From a virus: DNA of 64,000 nucleotides. The translations under genes were made by a program, and so were the position numbers. The stretch spans positions 90,344-154,343 of the IMG/VR virus record IMGVR_UViG_3300037524_002067; one strand, given 5' to 3'. The notes beneath the pieces were generated by a model. The model worked only from the letters and a program-made list of their open reading frames with translations. It did not search any database and had not been told where the DNA came from. Shown here in pieces: positions 2,731-34,842 of the stretch (positions are counted from its first letter, which is position 1; every line of letters begins with the position of its first letter).

Positions 2731-2766
2731 GTTATACGTGTGTAAAAACAAAAAGGTTTCAAAAAA
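2731..2766 (-). promoter_or_regulatory. ECF-type promoter TGAAAC-N17-CGTATAAC
   Basis: Minus strand TTTTTGAAACCTTTTT...CGTATAAC; same elements and spacing recur at 35506-35540. Confidence 0.7.
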
Positions 2767-2773: not shown

Positions 2774-4153
2774 TTAACAAAGAGGGGCAATTATTTTTTT
2801 AGCAGATTCATAGTCTTTTAATATAAAAGCCTTTTTATTCACTAAAAAATTGGACATATCTGTTATTTTAAACAAATTACATATAGTTAAAAAATCAGTT
2901 ACTTGTTTTTCGGTGCAATTTAAACCATAATCCTGTATAGACTTTAAAAAGTCTCTATATTTTGGCATCATATCACCAACACTAACTGATCCATATTTAA
3001 AAAGAACATCTAAAAAACTCATATAACTAGCATCTTTTAAAACAACACCTTGCGATTTTAAATCTTCTAAAATTTTTTGCTTTTCATTATAGTCTGACTT
3101 AATTTCTTCTGTTTTTAAAGGCTGAAATTCACCTTCTTGGTTTGCTACATAACTCATAACGACATCTGTTTTTTCTGGTTCATTCGTTGTGTGTTGATTT
3201 TTGTTTTCTTCTTTTAGTTCAAAATTTTCTGGAGCAATATTTGCTCCCTCATTTGCTCCCTCATTTGCTCCCTCATTTACAGTATCATTTACACCATCAT
3301 TTACAACATCATTTACAGGAGGTCCTTCTTTTTTTATTTTTTCTTTGTCTTCTCCAAACTCCCTTTCCAAAGCTATATTTGTTGCAACTATTAAAAAAAC
3401 AGCCATTGGATCAAAAACAAATATTAATAAAAGTATAAAAAAATTAACTACTTGATCCATGTCTCTACCAGTGAGTTTAGCTATATATTTAAGTGGTCCA
3501 ACTTCACCATTTACATCGTTGTTTTTAAGATTTAAAACCTCAAGATCTAAAGCTGTTGTTTCATTATACTTTCTTTGTGTTCTAGCGTTTAGTGAATCAA
3601 TTTCAACATTAACACTAAAAATCTCTTTGTTAGCTTGCTCTATTTGAGCCTCGACTCTTTTTGCAACACCAATCTGTCTTCTCCCGTATAAGCTATCCAG
3701 TCTTGATTCTTGTTGGCTTCTAAGATTTGTCAAAGATTTTATTCTATCAGACTTTAAATTTTTGCTTTCTTCTAATCTTTTTATTTCAGAAATTATAATT
3801 TCTTTTTTCTGGTTAACCATTTCAATTTGAGCGTCTATATTCTGAAGCTTTCCAGATGTTGTAGAGTATGCGTTTGATAAAAAGCCGTATATACCAGCAC
3901 TTGTTATTATCATAACAACTGCAACACCAATTACGAGATATGTTTTAAGGTGCCATTTTATTTTTTTCCAATACCTGTGTAAAAATGAAGCTGTAACTAT
4001 TTTTGCAAATTCCAAGGCGGATGCCATTATTATAACTTCTACTTTGGCACCACCAAATAATTTCGACAAACCAGTTACGGAAAAAAATGCAGCTGCTCCA
4101 GCTAATGACAAAGCTGCTAACGCAACTAAAAATGGGAATATATACTTTTTCAT
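2774..4153 (-). CDS. membrane-anchored coiled-coil protein
   Basis: Three N-terminal hydrophobic helices, long coiled coil, GPLKY motif, further TM helix (FFILLLIFVFDPMAVFLIVA), soluble C-terminal domain. Confidence 0.75.
   Translation of the reverse strand: MKKYIFPFLVALAALSLAGAAAFFSVTGLSKLFGGAKVEVIIMASALEFAKIVTASFLHRYWKKIKWHLKTYLVIGVAVVMIITSAGIYGFLSNAYSTTSGKLQNIDAQIEMVNQKKEIIISEIKRLEESKNLKSDRIKSLTNLRSQQESRLDSLYGRRQIGVAKRVEAQIEQANKEIFSVNVEIDSLNARTQRKYNETTALDLEVLNLKNNDVNGEVGPLKYIAKLTGRDMDQVVNFFILLLIFVFDPMAVFLIVATNIALEREFGEDKEKIKKEGPPVNDVVNDGVNDTVNEGANEGANEGANIAPENFELKEENKNQHTTNEPEKTDVVMSYVANQEGEFQPLKTEEIKSDYNEKQKILEDLKSQGVVLKDASYMSFLDVLFKYGSVSVGDMMPKYRDFLKSIQDYGLNCTEKQVTDFLTICNLFKITDMSNFLVNKKAFILKDYESAKKIIAPLC
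3239..3317. repeat. 12-bp tandem repeat encoding (V/A)N(D/E)x tetrapeptides
   Basis: ATTTGCTCCCTC x3 then ATTTACAnnATC x3 plus a partial copy. Confidence 0.9.
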
Positions 4154-4190: not shown

Positions 4191-4622
4191 TTATTTTTCA
4201 CCAGGTTGTAAATCTGTGTGTGTGTTATCGCCCAAACCATGTTTTATTTTAAAATCTGATATCATTTTTTGCAAAAAAGATGTTGGTCTTCCATGAGTTT
4301 CGTTGTTTGGTCTTAAATCTTCCAGGTGTTTTTTTGTCCACTTATTAACTTCACCCTCTGGGGTAATATAATCTTCGTAATTATGATACCAAGTATCTTC
4401 ATACCAAACATAAAGTGGATGGACTTCACCATATGAATAAGCAACATACATCTTTCCTAAATCACCCAAATCTTCACCATAAGTGTGAGATCCAACGAAA
4501 TTTCTGCGATTAGCAACCTCTTGGGAAGCTTGTTTATTCGTTATTCTCTCTTCGTCTAAATATGCCTCCATTGGAATATTAAGCAAAGATTCTCTTATTA
4601 TTTTTCTAATTAGATCTTTCAC
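4191..4622 (-). CDS. hypothetical, putative head-packaged protein
   Basis: N-terminal MKDLIRKIIRESL motif; TATTTATA 16 nt upstream. Confidence 0.7.
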   Translation of the reverse strand: MKDLIRKIIRESLLNIPMEAYLDEERITNKQASQEVANRRNFVGSHTYGEDLGDLGKMYVAYSYGEVHPLYVWYEDTWYHNYEDYITPEGEVNKWTKKHLEDLRPNNETHGRPTSFLQKMISDFKIKHGLGDNTHTDLQPGEK

Positions 4623-5240: not shown

Positions 5241-5248
5241 TATTTATT
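5241..5248 (+). promoter_or_regulatory. putative late promoter TATTTATT
   Basis: Motif in sense orientation ahead of a plus-strand gene, so it follows gene orientation. Confidence 0.55.
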
Positions 5249-5273
5249 AAAAACACAGACAATTTTGTATCTT

Positions 5274-6959
5274 ATGCAAAAAAATTTAAAATCAATAATC
5301 AGAGAAGCTTTTAACGCGGCTTATCAACAATATAAAAAAAGCATTGTTAAAGAGGATACTTCAGCTGAAATGGCTGCAAGATTTGAACAAACCCCTGAAG
5401 GTAGAGCGCAAAAGGCAAAAGCTGATCAAGTTATTGATGTTCTAGATAATCAAAAAAGAGGTTGGGAAAAATACCACTGGGATCCTTCTGGAACTTCATC
5501 TTATGACAATTTAAACCACGCACAGTGGAACTATATAATAGAAACACTTTCAGAAAGAGCTAGATTAACAAAGGATCCAAAATACGCTCAAATATTTTCT
5601 AATATATATTCTGTGCTTCCAGTAAGAACTATTGATAGTGATGGCAACTCTATTTCTTCTAATTCGCCAGCATATAACTATTTCATAAACAACAGTGAAA
5701 TGTTGCGTGATATAGCAAGACAAAACCCAGATATGGCTTTTGAAGCTCTTGAAAACGCTTGGGGAAGAGCTTTTTATACAGATGAGTGGAATAAATTACT
5801 AGATTTATATCAATCAATGCCTGGGGCTAATTTTGGTAGCTTATTGGCAAACAATATTCGTCGTTGGACAAATGACCTTTTAAAATCTAAAAAAAACAAA
5901 CTAAGACGCGGAACTGGTTCTTTAGATGCCCCAAGCAACATAACTGGTAAATCAACTGATGTTGAAGGTGGTATTGAATCACAAGAAGACGATAGTATGG
6001 ATGACGAAGAACAAGTGGGTGGGCCAAAAAACGCTTTTGATGATGAAGAAAATGCGGAAGACAGCTTAGAAACTGGTTTGGATGCATACTCATCTGATGC
6101 AAACAACCTAGATGCCCTATCAAAAAGCAAAAAAGTAGCAGCTTTAAAGTTTCTAAAATTTCAAAAAGCCATTGATAAAATTTTGAACATATCACAGGCT
6201 CTTCCATTATCAAACAAACAACAACAAGGCGTTTTTGCTCTTAGCGAAATATTGAAAAACTTTAAAACATACGATGAAATCGCATCTGAATTTCCAGAAA
6301 AATTCTCAGATAAAGATGAACAAGGCAACGTTGTAAATGCGGAAGTTGCCGCTGTTAAATCAAGATTAAAAAGCATCTTGAATAAGATAGCAAAACCAAT
6401 GTTGGAACCATATGGCGTTACTCCTGATGTGTTTTCTGAAAAATCGTGGGAAAGCAAATATAATTTGCCAAATGACATAGTTGATCAAATTGTGAATCAA
6501 TTCAATGCTGTTTCAAAAGCTGGCACAACTGAAAAAAGACAATATACAAATGCGTTTATAGAATATGCTAAAAACCATTTAACACCAGAAGAAATAGCTG
6601 AAAAACCTATTCAAGGAGTTTACAAAAAAGAAAAAAGAAAAACATCTAGCGCAGATGCTGTAAAAGAAGCTATAATGAATTTAAATAAAAACCAAAAGTT
6701 TGAGGCTTTAGCTGACTCAATATTAAACGAATTTGGTTTTCCAATTGCTTTTGACTCTATTATTTGGTCAGATTATTGGAAAGCGGGAAAAGAACTTCAA
6801 AGTTTAGCTGGAGCAAAAAAGGAACCAGCTTTAGCAAAAGAAAAAGATCCAGAAAAAGATTTGTACCCTTTTCAAAGAGAGAGTTATGAAGCTTTTTTGG
6901 CAGAAAATTTTGATATAATTGTAAAGAAAGTATATGATAGATTAGAAAAGTTTTTATAA
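5274..6959 (+). CDS. divergent ECF-like sigma70-family factor, possibly virion-packaged
   Basis: Region 2-like NPDMAFEALENAW...LYQSMPGANFGSLLANNIRRWTNDLLKSKK, SLDAP, acidic linker, region 4-like ALPLSNKQQQGVFAL...TYDEIA...AVKSRLKSILNKI; N-terminal LKSIIRE; ATG 5274 preferred over TTG 5265. Confidence 0.6.
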   Translation: MQKNLKSIIREAFNAAYQQYKKSIVKEDTSAEMAARFEQTPEGRAQKAKADQVIDVLDNQKRGWEKYHWDPSGTSSYDNLNHAQWNYIIETLSERARLTKDPKYAQIFSNIYSVLPVRTIDSDGNSISSNSPAYNYFINNSEMLRDIARQNPDMAFEALENAWGRAFYTDEWNKLLDLYQSMPGANFGSLLANNIRRWTNDLLKSKKNKLRRGTGSLDAPSNITGKSTDVEGGIESQEDDSMDDEEQVGGPKNAFDDEENAEDSLETGLDAYSSDANNLDALSKSKKVAALKFLKFQKAIDKILNISQALPLSNKQQQGVFALSEILKNFKTYDEIASEFPEKFSDKDEQGNVVNAEVAAVKSRLKSILNKIAKPMLEPYGVTPDVFSEKSWESKYNLPNDIVDQIVNQFNAVSKAGTTEKRQYTNAFIEYAKNHLTPEEIAEKPIQGVYKKEKRKTSSADAVKEAIMNLNKNQKFEALADSILNEFGFPIAFDSIIWSDYWKAGKELQSLAGAKKEPALAKEKDPEKDLYPFQRESYEAFLAENFDIIVKKVYDRLEKFL

Positions 6960-7220: not shown

Positions 7221-7664
7221 TTATTTTTTAGAGAAAAGACAAATTATGTCGTTAATTATGTCTAGTTTTTTTAAAAGTGTTTCTTTAAACCCAGACAAAA
7301 GACTCTCTGGTGTTTCGTTTGGAAAAAACCACCCAAAATCAATAGCTTCACCCTCAACTTCAATGTTTGGTGTGAATTCCTCATCAAAAACACCAGCAAA
7401 AGTATAAAAATCAATATGATTTGTTTTTTGAACGTGTAATGGTTTTTTGGACATTCTATATTTGCCAAGATACATACTTTCTTCTCTAAATTCTCGCTTA
7501 GCTGTATCTTTTGGAGATTTGTCTAAATCATTTTCAAATCCACCACCAAAACAAGCCCATTCTCCAGGTTGATCCTGGTCGTGACCGCGTCTTACCAAAA
7601 GAATTCTTCCAGTTTTTGGGCAAATAGGTAAAACACCAGCAGCTATTTGTTTTTGAGTTCGCAT
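7221..7664 (-). CDS. NUDIX hydrolase
   Basis: AAGVL..TGRILLVRR, WACFGGGFE..SPKDTAKREFREES Nudix box. Confidence 0.92.
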   Translation of the reverse strand: MRTQKQIAAGVLPICPKTGRILLVRRGHDQDQPGEWACFGGGFENDLDKSPKDTAKREFREESMYLGKYRMSKKPLHVQKTNHIDFYTFAGVFDEEFTPNIEVEGEAIDFGWFFPNETPESLLSGFKETLLKKLDIINDIICLFSKK

Positions 7665-9198: not shown

Positions 9199-10059
9199 TT
9201 ATTTTGCTTTTTCTAATTTTTCTTTGTATTTGTTCAAAATTCTTGTAAGCATTGATTTTGTATCGGCTGGCATTTTAGAAACGTTTATTAACCAATCATA
9301 ATATTGCATGTCTTTATAAAGAGATTCTCCGATTGGTTTACCTGGCTGTTCGCCATCTTTAGATGGTCCGTATTTTGTTCCAAAATTAAAAATTGGCACA
9401 CCCTTTTCATTCAATATGATATTACCCTCAATATCTAAAGACTTGATAGATTTATTGAAAACCTTGCTTATGCTCTCAACTGTTGGCTCTATTTTGTTTG
9501 TTGCTTTGGTCTTGTTGTCTGCCAACTCCTTGCCAGAATATTTATCCATCATGTCGTTTAACATTTCAACACACATATTGTTTGTTTCCTCAGAAGAAAT
9601 TGTTTCTATTTTTTTGTTACAGTAGAAACTGCATGCTGATTTAAAATCTCTTGGCTCCATTGTGTGATAAATCTTGGAAAGTTCTATTATTTCTCTTCCA
9701 ACTATATCAAATGGAACATTAACTCTATAAAACTCTTCCGACAATATTTTAAGATCAAAGTACTTTATATTAAATCCCGCAAAATCACACCCCTCTAAAA
9801 ATTTAGATATACCAGTTGCTGCTTCAGCAAAGGTTTTCGAGACTTTCAATTTTTCATTTGTAATACCAGTTATTCTAGTTATTTCATCAGATATTTCTAT
9901 ACCTGGATTAATAAATCTCGTACCAACCTGGGTTGTTCCATCTATGTTTACTTTTAAAATAGATATTTCTATTATCTTATCTGTTTTAACATCTAGACCA
10001 GTGGTTTGAACCTTTATGAATGCGATTGGTTTATTGTGTGTAATTTTTAGCTTTTCCAT
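9199..10059 (-). CDS. DnaQ/Pol III epsilon-like exonuclease, catalytic residues substituted
   Basis: FIKVQTTGLD (ExoI DxE becomes KxQ), INPG, ITGIT, AGFNIKYFD, C-terminal FNFGTKYG; ExoIII HxAxxD not seen. Confidence 0.8.
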   Translation of the reverse strand: MEKLKITHNKPIAFIKVQTTGLDVKTDKIIEISILKVNIDGTTQVGTRFINPGIEISDEITRITGITNEKLKVSKTFAEAATGISKFLEGCDFAGFNIKYFDLKILSEEFYRVNVPFDIVGREIIELSKIYHTMEPRDFKSACSFYCNKKIETISSEETNNMCVEMLNDMMDKYSGKELADNKTKATNKIEPTVESISKVFNKSIKSLDIEGNIILNEKGVPIFNFGTKYGPSKDGEQPGKPIGESLYKDMQYYDWLINVSKMPADTKSMLTRILNKYKEKLEKAK

Positions 10060-10068
10060 AGTGTATTT

Positions 10069-10329
10069 TTAAATCCAATTTCCAGTTATTTCTTTATTTA
10101 ACATTTCAATATCTTTGTCTTCCCACTCTTCCAATATCTCCTCTACAAAAACAACATCATCTTCTTTTGACCAAAATATTCTTATAATATTTGTGTCATC
10201 TATTGTTTTAAACAAAGATCTTGTTTTATCACCACAAATATACAACAATTTTTTACCAGCTTCAACAAAATGTCCATCTTTAAAAATTTTTTGTTCGCGA
10301 AGCTTAAAATACCTAGACAGTTTTTTCAC
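10069..10329 (-). CDS. hypothetical protein
   Basis: ORF overlapping the sigma gene stop by 4 nt. Confidence 0.6.
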   Translation of the reverse strand: MKKLSRYFKLREQKIFKDGHFVEAGKKLLYICGDKTRSLFKTIDDTNIIRIFWSKEDDVVFVEEILEEWEDKDIEMLNKEITGNWI

Positions 10330-11219
10330 GACGTTTTACAACTTAAAAACTCTCTTAATTTATTGCTTTTATTATATGCTCTCAATTTTTTAAGAGCCAA
10401 TTCTTTTATTTGTCTAACTCTTTCATTTGTAAGATTTAATTCATCGCCTATCTCTTTTAAGCCCAACTCTTTAGAGCCATTCAAACCAAAGTACATATTT
10501 AAAATTTGACTCTCTCTTTCAGTGAGAGTATTTAATACAGAATTTATTTCATGTTTTAAAGATTCACTGTTCAGTTTAATATCAATATCTTCCATTGTTT
10601 CTCCTGGTATTATATCAATCATCTCTGAATCTGAATCCTCGCTAATTTTTTGATCAATTGAAAAACATTTTGAACTATCTAAATACGATGTTTTAATCTC
10701 ATCAGATGTAAAATCAGTAATCGCCTGAAGCTCTGCTTGAGTTGGCTCTCTATCTAGCTGTTTAAACAACACCTCTGAAGCTTTGTTTATTTTGCCTATA
10801 ATATTTATCTTGTTAATTGGCAATCTCACCATGCTTCCATTTTCATATATGTATTGCATAATTGATTGACGAACCCACCAAACAGCATAAGAAATAAACT
10901 TGAACCCCTTTGAGGGATCAAATTTATCAACGGCCTTTATTAGCCCTATATTTCCTTCGTTGATCAAATCTTCTGCGGACACATTCCCATATTGGTATTC
11001 CTTTGCGATAGTCAAAACAAATTTCAAATTACACTCCACTAAGTCTTTTAATGCTTTTTGATCTCCTGATTTTGCTCTAATAGCTAACTTAATTTGATCG
11101 TCGCCACTTATATCTTCTATTTTTCTAAGATCTTTAAAATAATTTTTTAAGGATGTGCTACTTCCAGTAATTGAAAGGTCGCTGTGTCCTATTGCCATTT
11201 TTTTGCTTTTGTGCCCCAT
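10326..11219 (-). CDS. rpoD: RNA polymerase sigma70 factor, short RpoD/SigA type lacking region 1.1
   Basis: LVECNLKFV, DLINEGNIGLIKAVDKFDPSKGFKFISYAVWWVRQSI, VRLP, L.EIG..LNLTNERVRQIKELALKKLR. Confidence 0.95.
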   Translation of the reverse strand: MGHKSKKMAIGHSDLSITGSSTSLKNYFKDLRKIEDISGDDQIKLAIRAKSGDQKALKDLVECNLKFVLTIAKEYQYGNVSAEDLINEGNIGLIKAVDKFDPSKGFKFISYAVWWVRQSIMQYIYENGSMVRLPINKINIIGKINKASEVLFKQLDREPTQAELQAITDFTSDEIKTSYLDSSKCFSIDQKISEDSDSEMIDIIPGETMEDIDIKLNSESLKHEINSVLNTLTERESQILNMYFGLNGSKELGLKEIGDELNLTNERVRQIKELALKKLRAYNKSNKLREFLSCKTS

Positions 11220-13337: not shown

Positions 13338-16300
13338 TTAACCACATTTGCTCGTTCCACAAGATGCGCACTTGAGGCACCCCTCCGAAAAGATAATGCT
13401 ATCTTCTGCTCCGCAATTTGTGCAGTTTGCACCTTTAAGTTTAGTGCCTTCTGATATGTATTTTTTAATACCTCTAACTACACCAGCTTTCCACGTTGTC
13501 AACGCTTCCTCCCCAAGATTTAAACTCTCTACTAGATTAATTACATATGGTAATGGCATTCCATGTCTCAAGATACCAGAAATCATTTTGGCATAATTGT
13601 GATAATCATGGTTAAAAGCTTTTGAAAGGCCTTCGATGATCATTACGTCATCTGTTTTGTGGTTTATTATAAAATCATATCTTGACTCACCATCAATTTT
13701 TAATCTTCTTATAACACCATTTTCAATTGATTTTGGTATTTTAAATTCATCTTCTCTACCAGTAAAAATTTCATAAGGTCTACCCTCAAACAACCCAACA
13801 AAAGCTATCCACTTCTCGCCCTTGTTTGTGAATCTGTGAACATCAGCATCTAAAAACTTTGGTCTTTTAGGCGCATGACTATCTTCAAACATTTTTTCTT
13901 TTTGTTTTTCTTTCTTTTCTGTTTCACTTACAAGAACACCACTTCTAGAACCTTCTCTGTAAACAGTAACACCCTTACAACCACTTCTCCAACCAGTTTC
14001 ATAAACTTTAGCAACAGTTTCTTCTGAAATGTCTTCTGGCAAATTAACGGTAACAGAGATAGAGTGATCGACATGTTTTTGAACCATTCCCTGCATTTCC
14101 ACTTTTTTCACCCAATCAACATCGTTTGATGTTGCTTTATAGTAAGGAGATTTTTTAATAATTTTTTCAATGTCTTCTTTTGGCATATTTATAACCTCGT
14201 TAACGTTATAGCCATTTGCTTCAAGATAAACCAAAAACTTATGATGAAACACTGGATATTCTTGCCAAGAATCACCAACGCTATCTGTAAAATCAACTCT
14301 AGCATTTTTGTCATTTGGGTTTATCTTTCTCCTTCTCATGTACATAATCATGAAAGCTGGCTCAATACCAGAAGTTGTTTGAGTTAAAATAGATACCGAT
14401 CCAGTTGGCGCAATTGTTAGAAGAGCAATATTTCTTCTGCCATATTTTACCATATTCTCATATAATTCAGCATCCTCTTTTTTAATTCTGAGAATAAACG
14501 GATTGTTTTTTTCTTTTTCCCAATCATAAATAGGGAAAGCGCCTCTTTCTTTAGCCAACTCAACAGAGCTTGCGTATGCAGCAAGCTTTAAGTTTTTGTG
14601 AACTTTTTCAGCAAATTTATTTCCCTCATCGGTTCCATAAATAATACCAAGAGCAGCCATCATATCCCCCTCAGCAGTAACACCGAGACCAGTTCTTCTA
14701 CCTTGTATACACTTATTTTTTATATTTGTCCACAGTTTGATTTCTGCTCTTTTAATTTCTTCTTCCTCTGGATCGCTGTTTATTTTTCCTAATATCTTAT
14801 CAATTTTTTCTAACTCTAATTCAATAAGGTCATCCATTAAACGTTGAGCAATAACTACATGCTTTTTAAATAATTCAAAATTAAATTTGGCTTTATCTGT
14901 AAAAGGATTTTCAACATAAGAATAAAGATTTAAAATAAGCAATCGACATGAATCATTCGGACATAGTGTGATTTCACCACAATTATGAGTCACAATACCA
15001 TTTGCTTCAAACTTGTTAATGCCAGTTATTTGACAATCATACACATCTTCATATCCAGCTTCTACGATAGATTCTATTTCATCACAAAATCTTTCTCTAT
15101 ACAATCCTCTTAAATTTAAATTACTAATAGCCTCATTTAGTTTTTTGCTTTTTACCTCATCTTTAAAACCTATAACTTGATTAAAAATATCAACATTGTC
15201 TTTAGAAATAATCAATTCGTGTTGTGCATTAACAAAATAATCTTTTTGCCCACCTTTTCCATTTGGCATAGCCTTAAACCCGCCTGTTCTCCTATTTTCA
15301 TAGACACTGGAAATTATACCGAATCTTGATAACATTCTTTGTATTGAATATAGATTATTTAAATCAGAAGAGGCAAGTCTAACGTTAATTCCTTTTTCCA
15401 GATTATCATTTACTGTTCCATCAGCATCAAAAATTCCAGATATAAACCCTATTTGAAAATTGCTACTAGTTTTTTCTATTTTTTCAGATATATGCTTGTT
15501 GACAACCTCTAACTCCTTAGCAAGTTTAAACACTTCTGAACTGCCAATTCTTACCTTGTGCATTATTTCTTCGTTAAACAAATTATCCCCACTTCCTAAA
15601 TCGTTTCTGTGTTTAAAATTGTTTTTTATCAAAGAAATAGCGTATTCTTTCATTTCGTTCCTATTATCTCCCCAATACTCAAAAATAGCTCTCTTAGAAT
15701 CAAAAGTGCCATCTCCTATTAAATTACCAATAAGCCACCCCTGTTCTGAATTGCCAAAACCCTTCCAATTATTTTCTCTGTTGTTAGAGATATTTATTTT
15801 ATCTCCCACATTTAAGTATTTAACTTCACACCATTCTGTGTGTTTTTTATCTCTACTTATATCCACAACCCTTTCAAGCTCATGATTGTGAGTAGCTCTA
15901 ATTGAGTATCCTCTTTTGGTTTTTACTTCATAAACCTTTTTATGACCAGTTAGAAAAAAACCTTCTGCAGTAGAGGGAGACATAACCCCATCAACAATAG
16001 CATTAAATTGTTTTCCTAATAAATCTTTTACTTGACGTGGACCACAATCAGTTAAAATCCATGTGTCTCCTGGAATACAAGGGTTCGTGCTTGTTGTTTT
16101 AAAACCAAGATCAGCATAACAATCTGGAATTGACTCTCTAATAATTGTGTCCCAAAATAAAACACCTGGCTCCGCTCTTTTCCAGGCATTATGAATAACT
16201 TTTTTCCACAAAGGAGAGGCTTCAATCTCTTTTGTATATTTTGGGGTGTTCGAATCAATTGGATATTTTTGTGTAAACTTATTTTCTGACAATGCGGCTT

Positions 16301-17000
16301 TCATAAAATCATCAGAAACTCTTACTGACACATTTGCGCCAGTAACTTTTTTCTCATCCATTTTCGCGTCAATAAAAGCCTCTGAATCAGGGTGCACAAT
16401 AGAAATAGATTCCATAAGAGCCCCTCTTCTTCCGTCTTGCGCAACCTCTCTTGTAGAGTTAGAAAAACGTTCCATAAAAGGAACGACACCAGTTGATGTT
16501 AATGCTGAGTTTTTTACTGGCGTACCTTTTGGTCTAACAAAAGAAAGATCTAAGCCAACACCAGCCCTTCTTTTCATTAGTTGCACTAATTCCTGATCCA
16601 ACTTCAATATTCCACCATATGAATCAGAATCTTTGTCGTTGCCTATTACAAAACAATTTGACAATGATACATATTGAAAATCGTTACCGATTCCAGCCAT
16701 TGGACTCCCCTGAGGGACTAGATATTTAAAATCTTTTATCAAGCTGTATATCTCTTCCTCAGATAAAGGGTTTTCAAATTTTGATTCTGCTCTCGCAAAT
16801 TCTCTAGCTATTCTCTTGTGCATATCATCTGGTGTAAGCTCAAAAATATTCTCGTTAGAATCTTTTAAAGCATATTTATTTACCCAAACTTCTGCTGCCA
16901 AACTGTCTCCATTAAAGTATTTTAAAGACGCTTCTATAGCTTGTTCTCTTGTATAAATCTCTTGTTTTTTTTCTGTTTTTGTTAATGTATTTTGTTCCAT
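13338..17000 (-). CDS. nrdJ: class II (adenosylcobalamin) ribonucleotide reductase with intein
   Basis: SLSNCFV, QDGRRGALM, GANVSV, AEPGVLFWD, TNP[intein]CGE, RRTGLG, IAPTGS, TSGIEP, KGVTVYREGSR, C-terminal Zn ribbon CTNC..CASC. Confidence 0.95.
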   Translation of the reverse strand: MEQNTLTKTEKKQEIYTREQAIEASLKYFNGDSLAAEVWVNKYALKDSNENIFELTPDDMHKRIAREFARAESKFENPLSEEEIYSLIKDFKYLVPQGSPMAGIGNDFQYVSLSNCFVIGNDKDSDSYGGILKLDQELVQLMKRRAGVGLDLSFVRPKGTPVKNSALTSTGVVPFMERFSNSTREVAQDGRRGALMESISIVHPDSEAFIDAKMDEKKVTGANVSVRVSDDFMKAALSENKFTQKYPIDSNTPKYTKEIEASPLWKKVIHNAWKRAEPGVLFWDTIIRESIPDCYADLGFKTTSTNPCIPGDTWILTDCGPRQVKDLLGKQFNAIVDGVMSPSTAEGFFLTGHKKVYEVKTKRGYSIRATHNHELERVVDISRDKKHTEWCEVKYLNVGDKINISNNRENNWKGFGNSEQGWLIGNLIGDGTFDSKRAIFEYWGDNRNEMKEYAISLIKNNFKHRNDLGSGDNLFNEEIMHKVRIGSSEVFKLAKELEVVNKHISEKIEKTSSNFQIGFISGIFDADGTVNDNLEKGINVRLASSDLNNLYSIQRMLSRFGIISSVYENRRTGGFKAMPNGKGGQKDYFVNAQHELIISKDNVDIFNQVIGFKDEVKSKKLNEAISNLNLRGLYRERFCDEIESIVEAGYEDVYDCQITGINKFEANGIVTHNCGEITLCPNDSCRLLILNLYSYVENPFTDKAKFNFELFKKHVVIAQRLMDDLIELELEKIDKILGKINSDPEEEEIKRAEIKLWTNIKNKCIQGRRTGLGVTAEGDMMAALGIIYGTDEGNKFAEKVHKNLKLAAYASSVELAKERGAFPIYDWEKEKNNPFILRIKKEDAELYENMVKYGRRNIALLTIAPTGSVSILTQTTSGIEPAFMIMYMRRRKINPNDKNARVDFTDSVGDSWQEYPVFHHKFLVYLEANGYNVNEVINMPKEDIEKIIKKSPYYKATSNDVDWVKKVEMQGMVQKHVDHSISVTVNLPEDISEETVAKVYETGWRSGCKGVTVYREGSRSGVLVSETEKKEKQKEKMFEDSHAPKRPKFLDADVHRFTNKGEKWIAFVGLFEGRPYEIFTGREDEFKIPKSIENGVIRRLKIDGESRYDFIINHKTDDVMIIEGLSKAFNHDYHNYAKMISGILRHGMPLPYVINLVESLNLGEEALTTWKAGVVRGIKKYISEGTKLKGANCTNCGAEDSIIFSEGCLKCASCGTSKCG
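14982..16079 (-). mobile_element. intein with LAGLIDADG homing endonuclease in NrdJ (366 aa)
   Basis: Starts CIPGDTWILT, block B IRATHNH, LIGNLIGDG and FISGIFDADG, ends VYD..NGIVTHN followed by catalytic C of NPCGE. Confidence 0.95.
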
Positions 17001-17062
17001 ATTTTAATTTTTTAAAGGGGTAAAAATAAATAAAAGTAAATTTTGTTTTTTGTCGGTTTTTT

Positions 17063-18493
17063 TTATTTTATTCGGCTAGTAAGCATTATCTCGTTGATTG
17101 CTAAGTTGATATTATTTTCAGGAAAATTTTCGCTTTCTGTTGTTTTTTTATTTTTTTGATTTTTTTTCATCATTAAATCACCAGGTTGAACTTTTTTAAG
17201 CTCTATGTGTATTTTTCTTGTGTCAAATTCTGCTGGTAAATGGAAGCCGTCGTTGCCATTTCTGTTTTTAAGAATTCCTATAGTTGCCTTTTGTTCTAAT
17301 TTATCATCTGATGTTCTACCAATACCAATAACAACATCCGCCGCTCTTGCATTACCCAATGACTCACCAATGGTTTTTAATGATATTTCTTCTTGATCCA
17401 TACCCTCTCTGTTTGTTTGAGCAGCATTCCAAACTGGCACATTCAACTCAACCGCCATACCTCTGATTCCAATATAAATACTATCTAAAGAGTGTCTTTT
17501 TTCACTATAATTGTCTGTTGGCTTTAATAAATCCCCATAATCAATAAAAATAATATCTGGAATAAAACCTTCGTTTATTTGTAGCTGTTTTGTGTGTGAA
17601 ATAAGATTGGCTACAGTCGCTTGTCCAGTTGGGAAAGACTTAATAATTAAATCACCACCTATTTCTTTTAACTCTTCTATTTTTTCACAAATAACATCCG
17701 TGAACTCCCAAACTTCTTTAATTGGAATTTGATTAATACAAGAATCAAATCTATTTCCAACAGCTCCCTCAGAAAGCTCTAAAGTATAATACAAAACTTT
17801 TTTACCATTCAAAAAAGCTGTTGTTGCAAATTTAACCAACATCATTGATTTACCCCCACCAGTTGGCGCTAAAACAATACCCATTTCACCAGGCGATAAA
17901 CCATTACCTATATATTCATCTAGTGACGGCATTGCGGAAATAGGTTTTCTAAAATCACCTTTTAAACGTTTTTCAGCATCTTTTATATAGCTATGACCAC
18001 CCTGTTTTGGTTCACCAGCTCTAAGAGCTTCTTCAAGAGTGGCCTTCATGGAATCATAATTTTGCTTTCTCCAATCTGCCACCATTTTTTTAATACAATT
18101 TTTTACACTTCTTTCCTTAAAATATCTGTAAATAGAATCTTTGATATGTCTTGCATTTTCGGGTTTCGCTTTTTCAATGTTTTCTATAAGACCAATTAGA
18201 TGATCTTTTGTTAAACCTTTTTCTTTTTCGTTTATAATATCTCTTAACGTAGAAAAACTAGCTATTTCCTTATATTTAGAAAAAAATTTTAATTCATAAT
18301 CCAACAATATTTTCTGATAACTGTCGAAATAATCTACTTGAACTATATCTATTATTTGATTTGAAAACCCTTCTTTGTCAGTTATAAAAATATTTAAAAA
18401 CCTATTTTGATAATTAACATCAAATGGTGTAATATTATCTTCTTCTAAAAAAGAACTTATGTCTTCTGTTATATTGTTGTTATTGTTGTTCAT
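17063..18493 (-). CDS. DnaB/T4 gp41-like replicative helicase
   Basis: APTGGGKS, YYTLEL, IFIDYGDLL, AAQTNR, LKNRNG. Confidence 0.92.
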   Translation of the reverse strand: MNNNNNNITEDISSFLEEDNITPFDVNYQNRFLNIFITDKEGFSNQIIDIVQVDYFDSYQKILLDYELKFFSKYKEIASFSTLRDIINEKEKGLTKDHLIGLIENIEKAKPENARHIKDSIYRYFKERSVKNCIKKMVADWRKQNYDSMKATLEEALRAGEPKQGGHSYIKDAEKRLKGDFRKPISAMPSLDEYIGNGLSPGEMGIVLAPTGGGKSMMLVKFATTAFLNGKKVLYYTLELSEGAVGNRFDSCINQIPIKEVWEFTDVICEKIEELKEIGGDLIIKSFPTGQATVANLISHTKQLQINEGFIPDIIFIDYGDLLKPTDNYSEKRHSLDSIYIGIRGMAVELNVPVWNAAQTNREGMDQEEISLKTIGESLGNARAADVVIGIGRTSDDKLEQKATIGILKNRNGNDGFHLPAEFDTRKIHIELKKVQPGDLMMKKNQKNKKTTESENFPENNINLAINEIMLTSRIK

Positions 18494-23317: not shown

Positions 23318-26300
23318 TTATAATAAATAAGAAGGTGAATTTTCGTATAAAATAACCCCAAACCTTCCAATATCGTGTAAAATATCTTTTATGTTTTGGT
23401 AGGCTCTTACCGTGCCCCCATTTGGGTCGTTAATATTATATGTACCATCGCTATTTTTACCAGTAATAACCATCCAATGTTGATTTCCGCCAACATACTT
23501 TGTTTGATTATCGCCTATTGCAGGTCTTCCATTTGCCTTGTTGTTTACCAAAGTGGTGCCTTTTGTTATGCTTCCACCAGGAGAAAATCTTGGCGGAATA
23601 TGAGATTTGCTCTCAAATAAAACTGGTATCTTTGCCGAAAGATATTTGTCAAGAAAAGCTTGATTAGCTTCTATGCCTCTTCTAACTGGTGTAAAACTAG
23701 CTTTTAAAATTTTGCTTGGATGTGCACTTCCAGGATTATCTCTTATGTATTGATTAATATTTCTTAATATTAAACCCCAATTAGATACAACACTATTATT
23801 ATTCCATCTAAATATTTGATCTGGTGTTATATTGCTTAATCCAGTCATGTACTTTGTAACCATTGCCAAAGATGTTATACAACAACCTCTAGAACCAATT
23901 GTATAACCATTACTGTCCCTATTGTTTGCCCACAATGTATTAGCTTGATTAAATATTGGGACTTTATTTGCACCATTTAATAAAACTGGATCAAACTCTA
24001 AATTATCTGCTGTTCTATTGTCATAAGACAAATCTTCGTCTTTCAATTTTACTGTATTATCAAAATCATCTTGTGTATAAGCTGTGAATTGCAAATTTGA
24101 AGTCTTAGACAAAGCTTCCAAAGTTTCTAAAGTAACTGGTTCAACGCCAGCAAATGTACCATTCTGAAAATCCATTCTCATCTTAATGCCCTCAGCAGTT
24201 GTAAACATATTGTTTGGTGAAATCGAATGTTTTACTCTCATTATTTGATACAGTCCGTTAAAGATAGGTAATGAGTTCAAATAAAAAAATTGCATTGGAA
24301 AAATTTGAGCATTACCAAGAATGTCTATGGTAGCCTTATAGCTTCTACCCTCCATAACAGATAACATAGAGCAATCTGTAGTCACTTTTTTGTTTTGATT
24401 TTCATTATCAACCAGTCTTTGTAGATTTATTATACTCTCTGCGGTTGGCTTATTTTCTTCAGTGCTTACATTTACACTTCTAACTATTTGATTGCCTGGG
24501 TCTCCAAACTTTATGTCTAAAGTGCCGTTTGGCAATCTATCAGATATATCATTAATTAGTGGCGCTTGAACATTATTTGAATTACTCAACTTAGATCTTG
24601 ACTCTGGTGTGGGAACAAATTGAACATAAAAAAAGTTTTTTATTCTTTGTTCACTAACTGGGTGTGGCGAAAATATTTCACGGGTTGTAAATAGTCCAGG
24701 GTCTCCTGGCATTGGAATGAACAAAAAATTGTTTTGAGAACAAATTTGCGTAATAGTTTGCAAAACTGTTGTACTGCCATTTGCTTTACTTAATGGATCA
24801 ATGTTTATTATTGCATTTTTTACATTAACATTTGACGATGTTCTTGATAAAGAATTTAGTGGGTACCCATAAAGAAAAGAGTTGTTTGCAGCCGCTTCAG
24901 CTGTATTGGATGTTATATCAAAATTTATATGGTTACTATATCTTGAAGACATGTCGCCAACTATTGCCCCTGGACTTATTTCCTCGGAGCTTTGATCGCT
25001 ATTTGCGTCATCTATTATCAAGACCTCCCATTGTTGATATAAAACATGCATTTGTTTATATAAAAGATCGCGTTGGTCGTTTGATTTGCCGAGAACATTG
25101 GATATTATCTGACTCTTTTTTTGCTTTATATTTTCTATGTTTGATTTTAATTTTCCGCAAATTCTTTTTATCCAAGCTCTATGAACCACACCCTCTTCTC
25201 CATAATAAAATGGTCCAAATACTAAATCGTTATCTGTATTTGGGTGATACACAACAGAAAAAGTTATATTTTTTGCTGGAGTTTGATTAGCTTGTGGTTG
25301 ATCTGGTGAACAATAAACATTTGGCACTAGAAAATAATTATTTACATCATCTGTTAATTCAGATGGGTTTTTGAAAAACTCTGCATTGTTAGTGTTAATT
25401 ATTTTCGAATAATCTAACAACAAGCCATCTTGTTGTTTTTCATTCATGCCTTCTACAACGGGTATCAATTCACCACTAGAATCTTCTATTGGATTAACAA
25501 CATTAACATAACCCAATGGCGATTTTTTTTGTTTTTGTTTTTCTAAATCATTTTTTATTTCAGAATCGCTACTTGCTGAATTTATTTGTTGAGTCTTTGT
25601 AGACTCTGGGCTCGATATTGCTACAAAAACGTATTTATTTCTAGAGTTTTTTGGTTTAAAATAAGCCAAACCATTATTTACAACCTTAATAGCCTGGAAG
25701 GATTTGGTATCTATAAAATTAGAATTTGTTGTGTCTATAGATTCAGTTGAGCCGCTTGGTTTTTTGTTAAACCATGAACTTAATTCTTTGCCCAACGTTG
25801 TATATGTTAAACCTTGTTGATTGCCGAATGTTCCATCCCAATTAGATGGTCTATCTATAACCACATTGTAATTTAACAATGCATCTGGAATTGGCTGCCC
25901 AGCTTGACTTAGATAATTCGTAAACCCAACATAAAGAGGCTCGCCAGGCTCAAGAGAACCAGTGTCATTTGGCTTTCTAAGATTTAAAGCGTTTTCAGTT
26001 AATAAATTATCCCAAAACGTGCAAAACCTTTCTAGTTTATCTAATTCAGAATCTTGTAGAGCTCCTAAAATATTGTCATCAATATTTTCCATTTCTGCAT
26101 CTACAAGACTAATTATATCATCTGATGTAGTGGCTCTATCTTTTCCAAGCAAAGTATCATAATCACCAGGCTTATTAGGATCTGGACTTCTTGTTAAATA
26201 AGCAACAATACCACCTCTAACCAAAATGTTTTGAATTATATTTTGAAAATATGGTTTATATGGATTTGGCCTTAAAGCCTCTAAGTTGTTTATTCTCTTT

Positions 26301-27694
26301 TTTATATATGACTCTCCAACATTTTCTAAAGCTCCACTATTTTCTGAAAGTCTATCTGTCGCGATACCTTCACTTATAGCGTTTATAAAATTATCAACAA
26401 AAGCCATTTCATATTCATCTGCACCAACATTTGCGTTGTTTTCTGAAATAGCTGGCTTTTCTTCTTGTTTGTCGTTAAACTTTAAAGGAAAGCTTTTACC
26501 TATTAAATTATTTGAAGTGTTGTCCCTGGTAGCTCTATTTTGATTATAACCCTGATACCCAGCCTCCAATATTCTGCCCATAATATAACCAGCATCTTCA
26601 GCTAACTGTCTAAATATTTCACCTATTGTTATTTTTTGTAATTGATTTTTGCTTGAATCATATGCTTTGGCTTTAATCGCTCTCTCTATTTTTAGCGCAT
26701 ATTCTGATAGAATAGATACACGCTCTGATATTTTTTGAGAATAAGATGAATCTCCAGTTAAAGCAACAAAGTCGGAAAAATATATATTTTCTGGTTTTAA
26801 ATCTCCAATAGTAGATGTTAACAATAAAAACTTATTTATTTTACCTATATTTTGACCATTTGTTGCAAATGACTTTATTTTAATATCATCACTAATGTCT
26901 CTATTTTTTACACCAATTGGCCTATAAACAATAATGGGTTTAAAACCATCTATAAATTGTTCTCCGACTTGACCAGTTATTGGTTCATCATAATTTATAA
27001 TTTTTGTAATATGTAAAGCATCATAAAGTCTTTGTGATTTTAAAAGACCAATTTGATTCATTAAAACATCAAACTCTTTTGTTGTTTCTTTAGTTTTTAT
27101 CTCTACTTGTTTACCAATTTTAATTAAATCAAAAACAGTTTGAACTTTTTCAAAATCCTCACTGTTCATGGTTTGTCTCTTCAAGGCTTTTACAGCTTTT
27201 AAATAAAGAAATGGAAGATCTGCCATAAACCCCCATTGATTTGGCACAAACTCACACTTTATGTTGTAACTTCCATCTGAAGGTTCGTATGTTGTTGTTG
27301 ATCTCTTCATATTCAACATCCACGTAGATGACCTACCCAATTCACCTTTAAATGTAAATAAGAACTTTGGTGGTGGCCAATTAAAGAGTACCGAATAATC
27401 AGCTTCATCACTATCAACGCCTTCAAGATCTAAAACACTACTTTTTGTCTTTCCAAAAGCTGTGTTTCCGTATAAATCTTTAAAAGTTATTGTAACAAGT
27501 GGTTGCATAGAAGTGTTAACTTCTATATCAATATTTGTTATTCCGAACCCAACGCTTTCTCTGTAAAATTCAACTCCAAATATTTTTTTTCCAGTAAAAT
27601 CTCTTTTTACACCATCAACAATAGCTTCTAACCTCACATCTATTGTAAGATCTTTTTGTGAAAATTGTGCAAGCGGAAATCTTTCTATTGACAT
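23318..27694 (-). CDS. large baseplate hub/tail protein with C-terminal C39-like peptidase domain
   Basis: N-terminal FGITNIDI..P.VTITFKD..WPPPKFLFTFKG; hub-type RSYKATIDILGNAQIFPMQFFYL..P.FNGLYQIMRVKHSI; C-terminal GCCITSLAM..HWMVITG..INDP. Confidence 0.7.
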   Translation of the reverse strand: MSIERFPLAQFSQKDLTIDVRLEAIVDGVKRDFTGKKIFGVEFYRESVGFGITNIDIEVNTSMQPLVTITFKDLYGNTAFGKTKSSVLDLEGVDSDEADYSVLFNWPPPKFLFTFKGELGRSSTWMLNMKRSTTTYEPSDGSYNIKCEFVPNQWGFMADLPFLYLKAVKALKRQTMNSEDFEKVQTVFDLIKIGKQVEIKTKETTKEFDVLMNQIGLLKSQRLYDALHITKIINYDEPITGQVGEQFIDGFKPIIVYRPIGVKNRDISDDIKIKSFATNGQNIGKINKFLLLTSTIGDLKPENIYFSDFVALTGDSSYSQKISERVSILSEYALKIERAIKAKAYDSSKNQLQKITIGEIFRQLAEDAGYIMGRILEAGYQGYNQNRATRDNTSNNLIGKSFPLKFNDKQEEKPAISENNANVGADEYEMAFVDNFINAISEGIATDRLSENSGALENVGESYIKKRINNLEALRPNPYKPYFQNIIQNILVRGGIVAYLTRSPDPNKPGDYDTLLGKDRATTSDDIISLVDAEMENIDDNILGALQDSELDKLERFCTFWDNLLTENALNLRKPNDTGSLEPGEPLYVGFTNYLSQAGQPIPDALLNYNVVIDRPSNWDGTFGNQQGLTYTTLGKELSSWFNKKPSGSTESIDTTNSNFIDTKSFQAIKVVNNGLAYFKPKNSRNKYVFVAISSPESTKTQQINSASSDSEIKNDLEKQKQKKSPLGYVNVVNPIEDSSGELIPVVEGMNEKQQDGLLLDYSKIINTNNAEFFKNPSELTDDVNNYFLVPNVYCSPDQPQANQTPAKNITFSVVYHPNTDNDLVFGPFYYGEEGVVHRAWIKRICGKLKSNIENIKQKKSQIISNVLGKSNDQRDLLYKQMHVLYQQWEVLIIDDANSDQSSEEISPGAIVGDMSSRYSNHINFDITSNTAEAAANNSFLYGYPLNSLSRTSSNVNVKNAIINIDPLSKANGSTTVLQTITQICSQNNFLFIPMPGDPGLFTTREIFSPHPVSEQRIKNFFYVQFVPTPESRSKLSNSNNVQAPLINDISDRLPNGTLDIKFGDPGNQIVRSVNVSTEENKPTAESIINLQRLVDNENQNKKVTTDCSMLSVMEGRSYKATIDILGNAQIFPMQFFYLNSLPIFNGLYQIMRVKHSISPNNMFTTAEGIKMRMDFQNGTFAGVEPVTLETLEALSKTSNLQFTAYTQDDFDNTVKLKDEDLSYDNRTADNLEFDPVLLNGANKVPIFNQANTLWANNRDSNGYTIGSRGCCITSLAMVTKYMTGLSNITPDQIFRWNNNSVVSNWGLILRNINQYIRDNPGSAHPSKILKASFTPVRRGIEANQAFLDKYLSAKIPVLFESKSHIPPRFSPGGSITKGTTLVNNKANGRPAIGDNQTKYVGGNQHWMVITGKNSDGTYNINDPNGGTVRAYQNIKDILHDIGRFGVILYENSPSYLL

Positions 27695-27996
27695 TACTTA
27701 TCTCTATTGTTTGCTATGTAATTTCTAATCTCTGTTAAGACATCCCTTAAAGGAAATGGCACTCTTAGTATTGTGTTATCTGGAATATCAAACTCATAAG
27801 AATATTCTGGATTTGCCCAAAGTATAATCCTGGTTAAAGTTTCATCTTCATATATTTCACCAGATATATAATCCAACCTCATTCTTTGAGAATGATATGT
27901 TATATATTTATCGGTTCTTCTTTTTGAAATCCTGACATCTGGCATATTCTTTAAAGTGTTGCCAACTTTTAAATCTCTATAAAAATCAAACGGCAT
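27694..27996 (-). CDS. baseplate wedge protein, gp53/LysM-like
   Basis: RLDYISGEIYED..RIILWANP..EFDIPDNTILRVP; position between tube-like and hub genes. Confidence 0.75.
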   Translation of the reverse strand: MPFDFYRDLKVGNTLKNMPDVRISKRRTDKYITYHSQRMRLDYISGEIYEDETLTRIILWANPEYSYEFDIPDNTILRVPFPLRDVLTEIRNYIANNRDK

Positions 27997-28010
27997 ATTT
28001 TGTTTTTTTA

Positions 28011-28018
28011 TATAAATA
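28011..28018 (-). promoter_or_regulatory. putative late promoter TATTTATA
   Basis: 14 nt upstream of ATG. Confidence 0.6.
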
Positions 28019-28056
28019 TTGCAATAAAACTTATTGCTAAAAACAGTTTTTTACAA

Positions 28057-28088
28057 ACAAAAACCGCCTACAATATATCGTAAACAGT
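28057..28088 (-). terminator. intrinsic terminator with G-U rich stem
   Basis: Minus strand ACTGTTTACGA/TTGTAGGCGGT pairs fully with wobble, followed by TTTTGTTT. Confidence 0.6.
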
Positions 28089-28102
28089 AAAAAAAACAAA
28101 GC

Positions 28103-34815: not shown

Positions 34816-34828
34816 TTAAGCGTTTCTT

Positions 34829-34836: not shown

Positions 34837-34842
34837 TAAAAT

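Follow-up and report, generated by a model that had tools for sequence, protein, structure and literature searches.

A plus-strand gene near the start of a 64-kb stretch of viral DNA (the window; IMG/VR record IMGVR_UViG_3300037524_002067, positions 90,344–154,343) encodes a protein in which residues ~60–215 are predicted to fold as a sigma2 domain, a clear fold result obtained by structural modeling. We judge the chances to be about even that the product of this gene is a sigma-like, highly divergent transcription factor from a phage that has no RNA polymerase (RNAP) of its own in the recovered part of its genome. The architecture of the protein, in which a sigma2-like domain is followed by a long acidic linker, a large basic domain, and a C-terminal helix, is new, as are the complete absence of a sequence signal for sigma homology and the presence of an N-terminal tag shared with other proteins of the phage. 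Divergent phage initiation factors seen only by structure are already known (T4 gp55; phiKZ gp68, PMC13282480). The window makes up the final 64 kb of a 154,343-bp record that CheckV rates as 59% complete, and the gene and its parts are arranged within it as follows.

5241–5248, plus strand: TATTTATT, a promoter-like motif 33 nt upstream of the start codon that belongs to a genome-wide (A/C)TATTTAT(A/T) class
5274–6959, plus strand: coding sequence of the sigma-like protein, 561 residues, stop codon included
5274–5354, plus strand: conserved N-terminal helix (residues 1–27) with the tag L-K-S-I-I-R-E (residues 5–11) and a second (L/I/V)-x-E (residues 25–27)
5451–5918, plus strand: predicted sigma2-like helical domain (residues ~60–215; AlphaFold pLDDT ~80–92; VIA-align)
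5916–6119, plus strand: acidic disordered linker (residues 215–282; pLDDT < 50)
5919–5960, plus strand: S-L-D-A-P-x-x-x-T-G-K-S-x-D, a conserved linear motif immediately after the sigma2-like domain, modeled as disordered
6120–6818, plus strand: basic all-helical C-terminal domain (residues 283–515; pI 9.1; pLDDT 84.5 when modeled alone)
6867–6953, plus strand: conserved C-terminal amphipathic helix (residues 532–560; consensus F-(I/L)-A-E-N-L-D-x-I-M-E-R-V-Y-K-R-L)

Structure prediction identifies a sigma2-like domain

The structure of the sigma-like protein was predicted with AlphaFold from 22 homologues, the set that also provided the family alignment and conservation figures. In the model, an N-terminal helix (residues 2–24) precedes a domain spanning residues ~30–213 (pLDDT ~85–90), a disordered stretch (215–282), a helical domain (283–513), and a C-terminal helix (532–560). 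In an exhaustive VIA-align search of 48,161 representatives from the Protein Data Bank (PDB), the top 16 rows were all sigma factors, and each of the 19 rows confined to residues ~48–220 was a sigma2 domain, with Z scores of 4.3–7.2 and every sigma group represented (gp55, pro-sigmaK, sigmaE region 2, SigW, SigI6, ShbA, AlgU, RpoS, SigC, SigK, CnrH, SigE, sigmaH, HrdB, sigmaA domain 2, EcfG-type RpoE, sigmaL, sigma28, and BldN). The best row was T4 gp55 (7d7d_F; chain identity confirmed), which matched residues 68–220 with a Z score of 7.2 and a root-mean-square deviation of 2.8 Å over 109 of 137 residues; its lead over the second row (Z 6.1) is about one unit, a near tie with bacterial sigma factors. 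Structure-based sequence identity was 15–19% to sigma factors of the extracytoplasmic function (ECF) class (SigW, AlgU, SigK, sigmaH, and BldN) and 4% to gp55.

It is the homogeneity of this list that carries the argument for a sigma2 domain, and the C-terminal domain, which returned a mixed list in the same kind of search, acts as an internal control by showing the form that a non-specific result takes. The details of the alignment are informative as well. The helix at residues 152–168 (A-L-E-N-A-W-G-R-A-F) aligns by structure with the region 2.1–2.2 helices of sigma factors, the helix at residues 187–213 (F-G-S-L-L-A-N-N-I-R-R-W...) aligns with the region 2.3–2.4 helices, and Trp163, Phe167, and Phe187, which are invariant in the family, lie in helices aligned to regions 2.1–2.4. 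The original prediction, made from sequence, had paired the same AW.R.F and NFG..L segments with the region 2.1–2.4 helices, a pairing that the structure-based alignment reproduces; likewise, the segments that it called region 1.2-like and region 2-like (helices 82–99, 152–168, and 187–213) fall within the confidently modeled domain, the structural neighbors of which are all sigma2. Its description of the protein as ECF-like is plausible for the sigma2 domain, given the 15–19% identity, but is unproven for sigma4.

The gene itself is securely defined. A single long plus-strand open reading frame (ORF) is real, as had been claimed, but position 5241, given originally as its beginning, marks the TATTTATT motif, and the coding sequence starts at the ATG at position 5274; all 22 homologues begin M-x-N-x-L. 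A TTG at position 5265 opens the reading frame and was rejected as the start because the homologues begin at the position of the ATG. An exhaustive HMMER search of 1.84 billion representatives recovered just 25 relatives, all on metagenomic contigs, and the sigma-like protein belongs to a small, phage-only family. In five of the relatives' contigs (L002, L003, L013, L014, and L017, the last three being the nearest), synteny is maintained down to 25% identity, with a gene for single-stranded DNA-binding protein (SSB; minus strand), the sigma-like gene (plus strand), and then an 81-residue gene and genes for NUDIX, UvrD, RNase T, and a sigma-70 protein (all minus strand) in that order. The sigma-like gene is a core gene of one phage lineage and not a stray ORF. 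No match was found when the protein was compared by tblastn with 50,697 phage records, and an IMG/VR scan with the family alignment gave no result.

Sequence methods are silent

Several observations weigh against a sigma-like factor. First, sequence comparisons of many kinds gave nothing. Pfam and PHROGs returned no matches for the protein, and none of the 22 family members matched Sigma70_r2 (PF04542) or any sigma family in Pfam at E ≤ 1. In six-frame searches of the genome at E ≤ 10, PF04542 found only a separate sigma-70-type gene at 10326–11219, and PF08281 (Sigma70_r4_2) also missed the sigma-like gene. Probabilities from hhalign were ≤ 0.2% against T4 gp55 (0.07%), the sigma factor encoded by that separate gene, and a profile of 40 primary sigma sequences (0.1%), and phmmer and hmmsearch comparisons with PDB sequences produced chance matches only (for example, fructose-2,6-bisphosphatase, E 0.018, over the YDEIA segment). 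Second, Foldseek found nothing in the PDB with the whole model and nothing significant in BFVD, where the sigma factor of Tenacibaculum phage PTm1 ranked 15th with an E-value of 0.12. Third, Z scores of 5–7 are modest for a helical domain (VIA-align cautions that, by chance, helical models frequently score this high), and the model was predicted from a shallow alignment. Fourth, a sigma4 domain is not established, which leaves recognition of two-element promoters unsupported. Finally, a factor that reads TATTTAT promoters would sit behind its own promoter class and would need a separate trigger. In favor of the sigma reading, as a separate and weak lead, a viral Sigma70_r2 cluster lay near the N-terminal part in a comparison of language-model features (3 of 30 hits; score 0.92).

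These results bear on the possibility that the protein is not a transcription factor at all. Its N-terminal helical bundle might merely resemble sigma2, or the model might be biased toward a common fold, and the protein might instead have an internal-head, ejection, or replication-associated role. The silence of sequence and profile methods and of Foldseek would be expected under such an explanation, as would Z scores within the range about which VIA-align warns, and the gene does sit between SSB and helicase genes. A generic bundle, however, should give a mixed list like that of the C-terminal domain, whereas all 19 N-domain rows are sigma2 domains from groups 1 to 4 plus gp55, and the structural alignment arrives at a pairing that had been proposed independently from sequence. 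On balance, we consider a role outside transcription to be unlikely. For residues ~90–380, the span to which sigma homology was originally ascribed, hhalign, Pfam, and Foldseek thus offer nothing, but VIA-align supports sigma2 for the N-terminal domain. "Cryptic, highly divergent sigma-like" remains a fair description of a protein with a predicted sigma2-like fold, an acidic linker directly after it, and no signal by sequence methods.

The linker and C-terminal domain

The SLDAP motif noted in the original prediction proved to be a conserved element directly after the sigma2-like domain, with Pro220, Gly225, Lys226, and Asp229 of the SLDAP..TGKS.D sequence present in at least 90% of the 22 homologues. 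The acidic linker was also borne out: its 68 residues (215–282) include 21 Asp/Glu and 2 Lys/Arg side chains (pI 4.05), are modeled as disordered, and vary in length and sequence among homologues.

The claim of a region 4-like helix-turn-helix (HTH) fared less well. The C-terminal domain contains two HTH-like units, at residues 310–372 (YDEIA..VKSRL) and 418–445 (TPEEIAE), and the predicted pattern L-P..Q-Q..V-F-A-L..Y-D-E-I-A..V-K-S-R-L is present, but the stretch from YDEIA to S-(R/K)-L is at least 6 residues longer than in sigma4 in all homologues, Pfam detected a region 4-like HTH in 0 of 22 family members, and fold searches were ambiguous. VIA-align gave a mixed list headed by DH domains (Z 5.1) and designed bundles; 8 of 50 rows were sigma4-type HTH domains (Z 4.1–4.6), below unrelated folds. 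Foldseek with the C-terminal domain found nothing in the PDB. As a lead only, language-model features placed this part nearest to Sigma70_r4/GerE clusters at scores of just 0.80–0.83.

A sigma-70-type gene and the decoy alternative

The phage also carries what its sequence indicates is a near-host-like primary sigma factor, encoded by a complete sigma-70-type gene at 10326–11219 (minus strand; regions 2, 3, and 4; 297 residues), and thus already employs sigma-based control. The product is 60–86% identical to ~290-residue proteins labeled in their source as "RNA polymerase primary sigma factor," some of which sit on contigs of 390–540 kb; the gene lies five genes from the sigma-like gene and occurs in all relatives. 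Ordinary sigma homologues are often encoded by jumbo phages that lack an RNAP of their own (PMC13282480), a pattern that the gene at 10326–11219 matches. The DxDGD motif was absent from all six frames of the record, which therefore shows no sign of a phage multisubunit RNAP, and such an enzyme was rejected on this basis as a partner for the sigma-like protein.

In six-frame searches of the record with Sigma70_r2 and Sigma70_r4_2, no canonical ECF sigma factor was found. Weak Sigma70_r4_2 matches elsewhere, considered as a hidden ECF sigma factor, were rejected because they correspond to an HTH–HNH endonuclease and an IS1595-like transposase. These matches, at record positions 27366–28139 and 9591–10547 (both minus strand), are mobile elements; the former encodes a 257-residue protein that joins repeated HTH units to an HNH nuclease.

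A complete sigma-70-type factor for the phage's own promoters, together with a sigma2 fold as the only well-supported feature of the sigma-like protein and an unestablished sigma4, would fit a different role, in which the protein is a sigma mimic that acts as an inhibitor or decoy. The sigma2-like domain would occupy the beta-prime clamp helices so that host sigma factors are displaced and host transcription is shut off, but would confer no promoter specificity; the rest of the protein would serve other contacts. The proteins that share its N-terminal tag (see below) are host-takeover or anti-defense enzymes and not regulators, and a 2026 preprint reports that a phage protein displaces host initiation factors through structural mimicry (10.64898/2026.10.05.756390). 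A decoy would not, however, need a conserved 240-residue basic domain, a linker motif, and a C-terminal helix, and the genome has phage-specific promoter classes with no assigned reader. We regard the decoy explanation as distinctly improbable.

Two classes of promoter-like elements

The motif upstream of the sigma-like gene belongs to an upstream element that, from its distribution and conservation in sequence, is real, conserved, and promoter-like. Of 126 copies of TATTTAT[AT] in the genome, 43 lie within 80 nt upstream of ORFs on the sense strand, and these ORF-upstream copies have in common a longer version, (A/C)TATTTAT(A/T), with an A-rich stretch after it. The extended element is found 32–54 nt upstream of the sigma-like homologue in all five relatives compared. 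Within the window, the exact 8-mer TATTTATT shows no significant enrichment (24 copies vs 16.7 expected; 7 of 100 shuffles reach 24); an excess emerges only when position and strand are considered.

The original prediction described the motif as one found before structural genes. It does precede the portal gene, the terminase gene, and several large genes of the structural region, and it is conserved, but it is not restricted to this class, as it also precedes genes for NUDIX, ribonucleotide reductase (RNR), and the ClpB-like protein. Late expression of the sigma-like gene may be suggested by the TATTTAT motif, the sole basis for that proposal and one shared with non-structural genes. For the NUDIX gene (window 7221–7664, minus strand), TATTTAT[AT] occurs at −12, also in all five relatives; in the window the motif ends ~4 nt before the start codon, which implies either a leaderless mRNA or a wrongly annotated start.

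A second class, GAAAC-N15-18-CGTATAA, resembles ECF-type promoters. Its nine copies all lie on the minus (coding) strand, and all have the extended CGTATAA:

window 2735–2760 and 35510–35535, minus strand: two copies of GAAAC-N15-18-CGTATAA
record 1557–1581, 3397–3421, 15803–15827, 28953–28977, 55035–55059, 70467–70491, and 77473–77497, minus strand: seven more copies

This element was not found in the relatives' loci that carry members of the sigma-like gene family. A gene for a PrsW-like protease (record 87428–87937, minus strand; PF13367, 1.9e-19) lies ~2.4 kb before the window and has a counterpart on the related contig L013. In Bacillus, SigW is freed by PrsW, which acts as the site-1 protease, and a phage-encoded relative makes a host ECF sigma factor an alternative reader of GAAAC..CGTATAA. 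The phage might activate such a host factor via the PrsW-like protease to read these elements.

An N-terminal tag shared by unrelated proteins

The original prediction proposed that the sigma-like protein is bracketed by protease-site motifs and is packaged in the virion. The N-terminal LKSIIRE part of that claim holds, as the sequence is both conserved and shared, but the C-terminal FLAE part does not. In the family, L-x-x-(I/L)-(I/V)-R-E is kept in 19 of the 20 homologues that have an N-terminus, with a second (L/I/V)-x-E ~15 residues after the tag, and residues 1–27 are a candidate targeting propeptide. At the other end, the glutamate of FLAE is replaced by Lys, Asn, Gln, or Asp in many homologues, and the motif was rejected as a conserved cleavage site for this reason. 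Generic (I/L)-x-E counts were likewise rejected as protease-site evidence: seven [LI]-x-E sites in the protein amount to 1.2 per 100 residues versus a proteome mean of 1.25, a chance-level density. Packaging thus gains real, if indirect, support from the tag and loses the support of generic (I/L)-x-E sites.

The same kind of peptide, with the form (L/I)-(R/K)-K-(I/F)-I-(R/K/Q)-E across the set, stands at the very start of at least eight further, unrelated proteins that the genome encodes; their genes map as follows.

4191–4622, minus strand: 143-residue tagged neighbor of the sigma-like gene, starting M-K-D-L-I-R-K-I-I-R-E and preceded by its own TATTTAT motif
window 39059–39508: 149-residue tagged coiled-coil protein in the baseplate region
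record 32137–34926, 77566–78864, 70495–70956, 15831–17735, 42300–42944, and 71968–72498: six further tagged genes

Tagged proteins include one of 929 residues with an ART-PolyVal ADP-ribosyltransferase domain (PF18760, 2.7e-19), one of 432 residues with ArdC-N and M78 peptidase domains (1.6e-10), one of ~150 residues that is probably a 2H phosphoesterase (two H-x-T motifs; LigT/2H match below the cut-off), and proteins of 634, 214, and 176 residues.

Multiple observations bear on the tag. First, a search of 183 ORFs with a strict form of the pattern gave 3 hits within the first 11 positions and 0 in 41,440 internal positions, and a loose form is enriched 14-fold at N-termini. Second, codons differ between copies of the tag, which indicates conservation at the protein level. 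Third, in the family of the 143-residue neighbor, the tag is kept on L002, L013, L014, and L017, and is followed by a variable stretch and then by a conserved L-D-E-E-R-I-T-N-K. Fourth, among 120 ART-PolyVal homologues from other metagenomic contigs, at least 27 carry the tag (for example, M-K-E-L-R-N-Y-I-R-K-L-L-E-E and M-D-L-R-K-Y-I-R-K-I-L-S-E) and others start directly with the ART domain, so the tag seems to be a portable module that is not confined to this phage. Fifth, the tag ends in I-R-E, I-K-E, L-K-E, I-Q-E, or I-S-E in nine of nine proteins, and the residue after the glutamate (P1′) is Ala or Ser in most of them. Finally, TATTTAT[AT] lies within 80 nt of 7 of 9 tagged genes versus 37 of 167 others (Fisher p = 0.001), and three tagged genes are directly followed by a GAAAC..CGTATAA element that restarts the next unit.

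By analogy with known phage cargo, a cargo-sorting signal would be the most economical reading of the tag, the tagged proteins would form a candidate set of co-sorted effectors, and the sigma-like protein would be placed in the virion. T4 packages and injects the ADP-ribosyltransferase Alt. Among the internal proteins of T4, the sole shared feature is a capsid targeting sequence (CTS; PMC3012670), T4 propeptides direct proteins to the core of the prohead, and giant-phage head proteins carry N-terminal propeptides, some of only 20–24 residues (PMC10052503). ArdC and polyvalent proteins, like the ART-PolyVal, ArdC-N/metallopeptidase, and 2H phosphoesterase types found here, belong to the kinds of protein that are known, or else predicted, to accompany phage or plasmid DNA (PMC5512222). 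It is the T4 targeting sequence, packaged Alt, and the giant-phage propeptides that lead us to interpret the tag in this way. From these parallels, virion packaging of the sigma-like protein is possible, with a likelihood somewhat short of even; that it is both packaged and acts as a sigma factor is more doubtful.

The fullest form of this idea, and the complete model of the original prediction, is a virion-delivered sigma factor, which would be made late from a TATTTAT promoter, sorted by its tag into the prohead, trimmed after Glu11 or Glu27 by the head protease, and injected, and would then guide the host's core RNAP to the phage promoters used first, such as GAAAC-N16-CGTATAA. In its favor are the precedents just cited; the occurrence of the tag on the ART-PolyVal, ArdC-N/M78, and probable 2H phosphoesterase proteins and at least four ORFans, as well as its portability among ART-PolyVal homologues; the arrangement of tagged genes as single units with their own TATTTAT motifs, which portal, terminase, and other structural genes share; the Ala or Ser at P1′; and a terminase like those of the T4 superfamily. 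Against it, neither a gp21-type protease (PF03420) nor a gp23-type capsid protein (PF07068) was matched at E ≤ 1 in the 59%-complete record; NUDIX and RNR genes also carry TATTTAT; GAAAC..CGTATAA elements are missing from the relatives' loci and could be read by a host ECF sigma factor released by the PrsW-like protease; the gene lies in the replication module and not among head genes; and the N-terminal amphipathic helix and tag could serve another role. We regard virion delivery in this form as a tentative possibility.

A capsid gene of any type was not identified in the 59%-complete record. When close cultured relatives with virion proteomes were sought by using the 143-residue tagged neighbor and the ART protein, none were found.

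Proposed mechanism and significance

If the gene encodes a sigma-like transcription factor, its sigma2-like domain would dock on the host's beta-prime subunit at the clamp helices, as do the sigma2 domains of ECF sigma factors and T4 gp55. In ECF sigma factors, the linker between sigma2 and sigma4 runs through the RNA exit channel. The acidic linker of the sigma-like protein could follow the same path, and its position and charge fit an exit-channel role, but it is two to three times longer than an ECF linker. The basic C-terminal domain might add contacts with DNA or the flap. The host core enzyme would be redirected to one class of phage promoters, either TATTTAT[AT], which precedes ~40 genes, or, less likely, GAAAC-N16-CGTATAA. 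The N-terminal tag would act as a sorting signal, most likely for prohead loading, by analogy with the T4 capsid targeting sequence.

A sigma-like initiation factor of this kind would be visible to structure prediction alone, and surveys of phage sigma factors based on Pfam would miss a class. The shared tag could provide a simple sequence handle for sets of co-regulated effectors in uncultured large phages, and the tagged set, including the ADP-ribosyltransferase, the ArdC-like protein, the phosphoesterase, and the sigma-like protein, may be injected cargo. If virion delivery is correct, it would represent a new strategy of host takeover, in which the phage brings a specificity subunit and borrows the host core enzyme. 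That the phage packages and injects a sigma-like specificity subunit with tagged cargo comprising an Alt-like ADP-ribosyltransferase, an ArdC-like anti-restriction protein, and a 2H phosphoesterase is a proposal that we put forward with reserve; with similar caution, the tag (L/I)-(R/K)-K-(I/F)-I-(R/K)-E would in that case signal capsid loading and be widespread on polyvalent-type effectors of uncultured phages.

Comparison with known systems

T4 gp55 (PDB 7D7C/7D7D, chain F) is a late sigma factor of 185 residues that has no domain other than sigma2 and acts together with gp33 and the gp45 clamp; the product of gene 55 is not known to be packaged. In addition to being the best structural match, gp55 resembles the sigma-like protein in being phage-encoded and unrecognizable as a sigma factor by ordinary sequence searches. 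Both phages have a terminase of the T4 superfamily, and in both a single-element A/T-rich motif precedes many structural genes, with TATTTAT[AT] being the reverse complement of T4's TATAAATA. The two proteins differ in that identity is 4% in the structural alignment, with an hhalign probability of 0.07%, and in that the sigma-like protein, at 561 residues, carries an N-terminal tag as well as an acidic linker and a 240-residue basic domain.

ECF (group 4) sigma factors (SigW, sigmaE/AlgU, SigK, sigmaH, and CnrH) match the sigma2-like domain with Z scores of 5.1–6.0 and 15–19% identity over 84–97 residues. They share an order of sigma2, linker, and second helical domain that is DNA-binding or resembles a DNA-binding domain, and the genome contains the ECF-type promoter-like sequence GAAAC-N16-CGTATAA. 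By contrast, Pfam Sigma70_r2 and r4_2 do not match the sigma-like protein, which is approximately three times longer, has a linker of 68 residues compared to ~20–30, and has at least 6 extra residues in its putative sigma4 HTH.

The promoter-specificity subunits phiKZ gp68 and AR9 gp226, from jumbo phages, are also phage initiation factors without sequence similarity to sigma factors, and gp68 is reported to be structurally homologous to sigma (PMC13282480). Those proteins, however, serve phage multisubunit non-virion RNAPs, whereas no DxDGD motif was found here.

With respect to packaging, the T4 internal proteins IPI–III, which bear the CTS, and Alt resemble the tagged set in that a short N-terminal peptide ending in (I/L)-x-E occurs on unrelated proteins, including an ADP-ribosyltransferase and anti-restriction-type proteins. 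The differences are that the tag has another sequence, that T4-type protease and capsid genes were not found, and that the set described here is known from sequence. The known T4 cargo includes no sigma-like protein. N4, phiKZ-like, and crAss-like phages inject a complete virion RNAP. If the sigma-like protein is packaged, transcription machinery would likewise enter with the DNA, and early genes would be independent of host initiation factors, but all that this phage would inject is a specificity subunit for use with the host core enzyme; virion-delivered sigma would fall between T4, with its injected modifier Alt, and the phages that inject a polymerase. A limited literature search found no report of a virion-delivered sigma factor.

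The locus and its surroundings

The source of the DNA is a large uncultured myovirus that is T4-superfamily-like, with a terminase ~27% identical to those of Vi01-like and T4-like phages. Almost all genes of the window lie on the minus strand, and the sigma-like gene is the only plus-strand gene within the conserved SSB/NUDIX/UvrD block. On one flank are genes for a ClpB-like AAA protein, a KaiC-like ATPase, a 459-residue ORFan, the 143-residue tagged ORFan, and SSB; on the other are an 83-residue ORF and genes for NUDIX, a UvrD-like helicase, an RNase T-like exonuclease, and the sigma-70-type protein. Farther along the window are genes for RNR, DnaB, a recombinase, DNA polymerases, baseplate proteins, portal, and terminase.

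The RNR large subunit (window 13338–17000, minus strand) has 1220 residues, compared to 857–860 in L013, L014, and L017, and residues 298–679 match a PHROG annotated as a helicase, which suggests an insertion within the gene, such as an intein or mobile element. Three very large ORFs on the minus strand, of 1458, 1209, and 1013 residues (window 23318–27694, 28103–31732, and 31774–34815, respectively), have no PHROG match; Pfam matched nothing in them but a C39-like peptidase domain, with which the 1458-residue ORF ends, and a TATTTAT motif lies upstream of the 1013-residue ORF.

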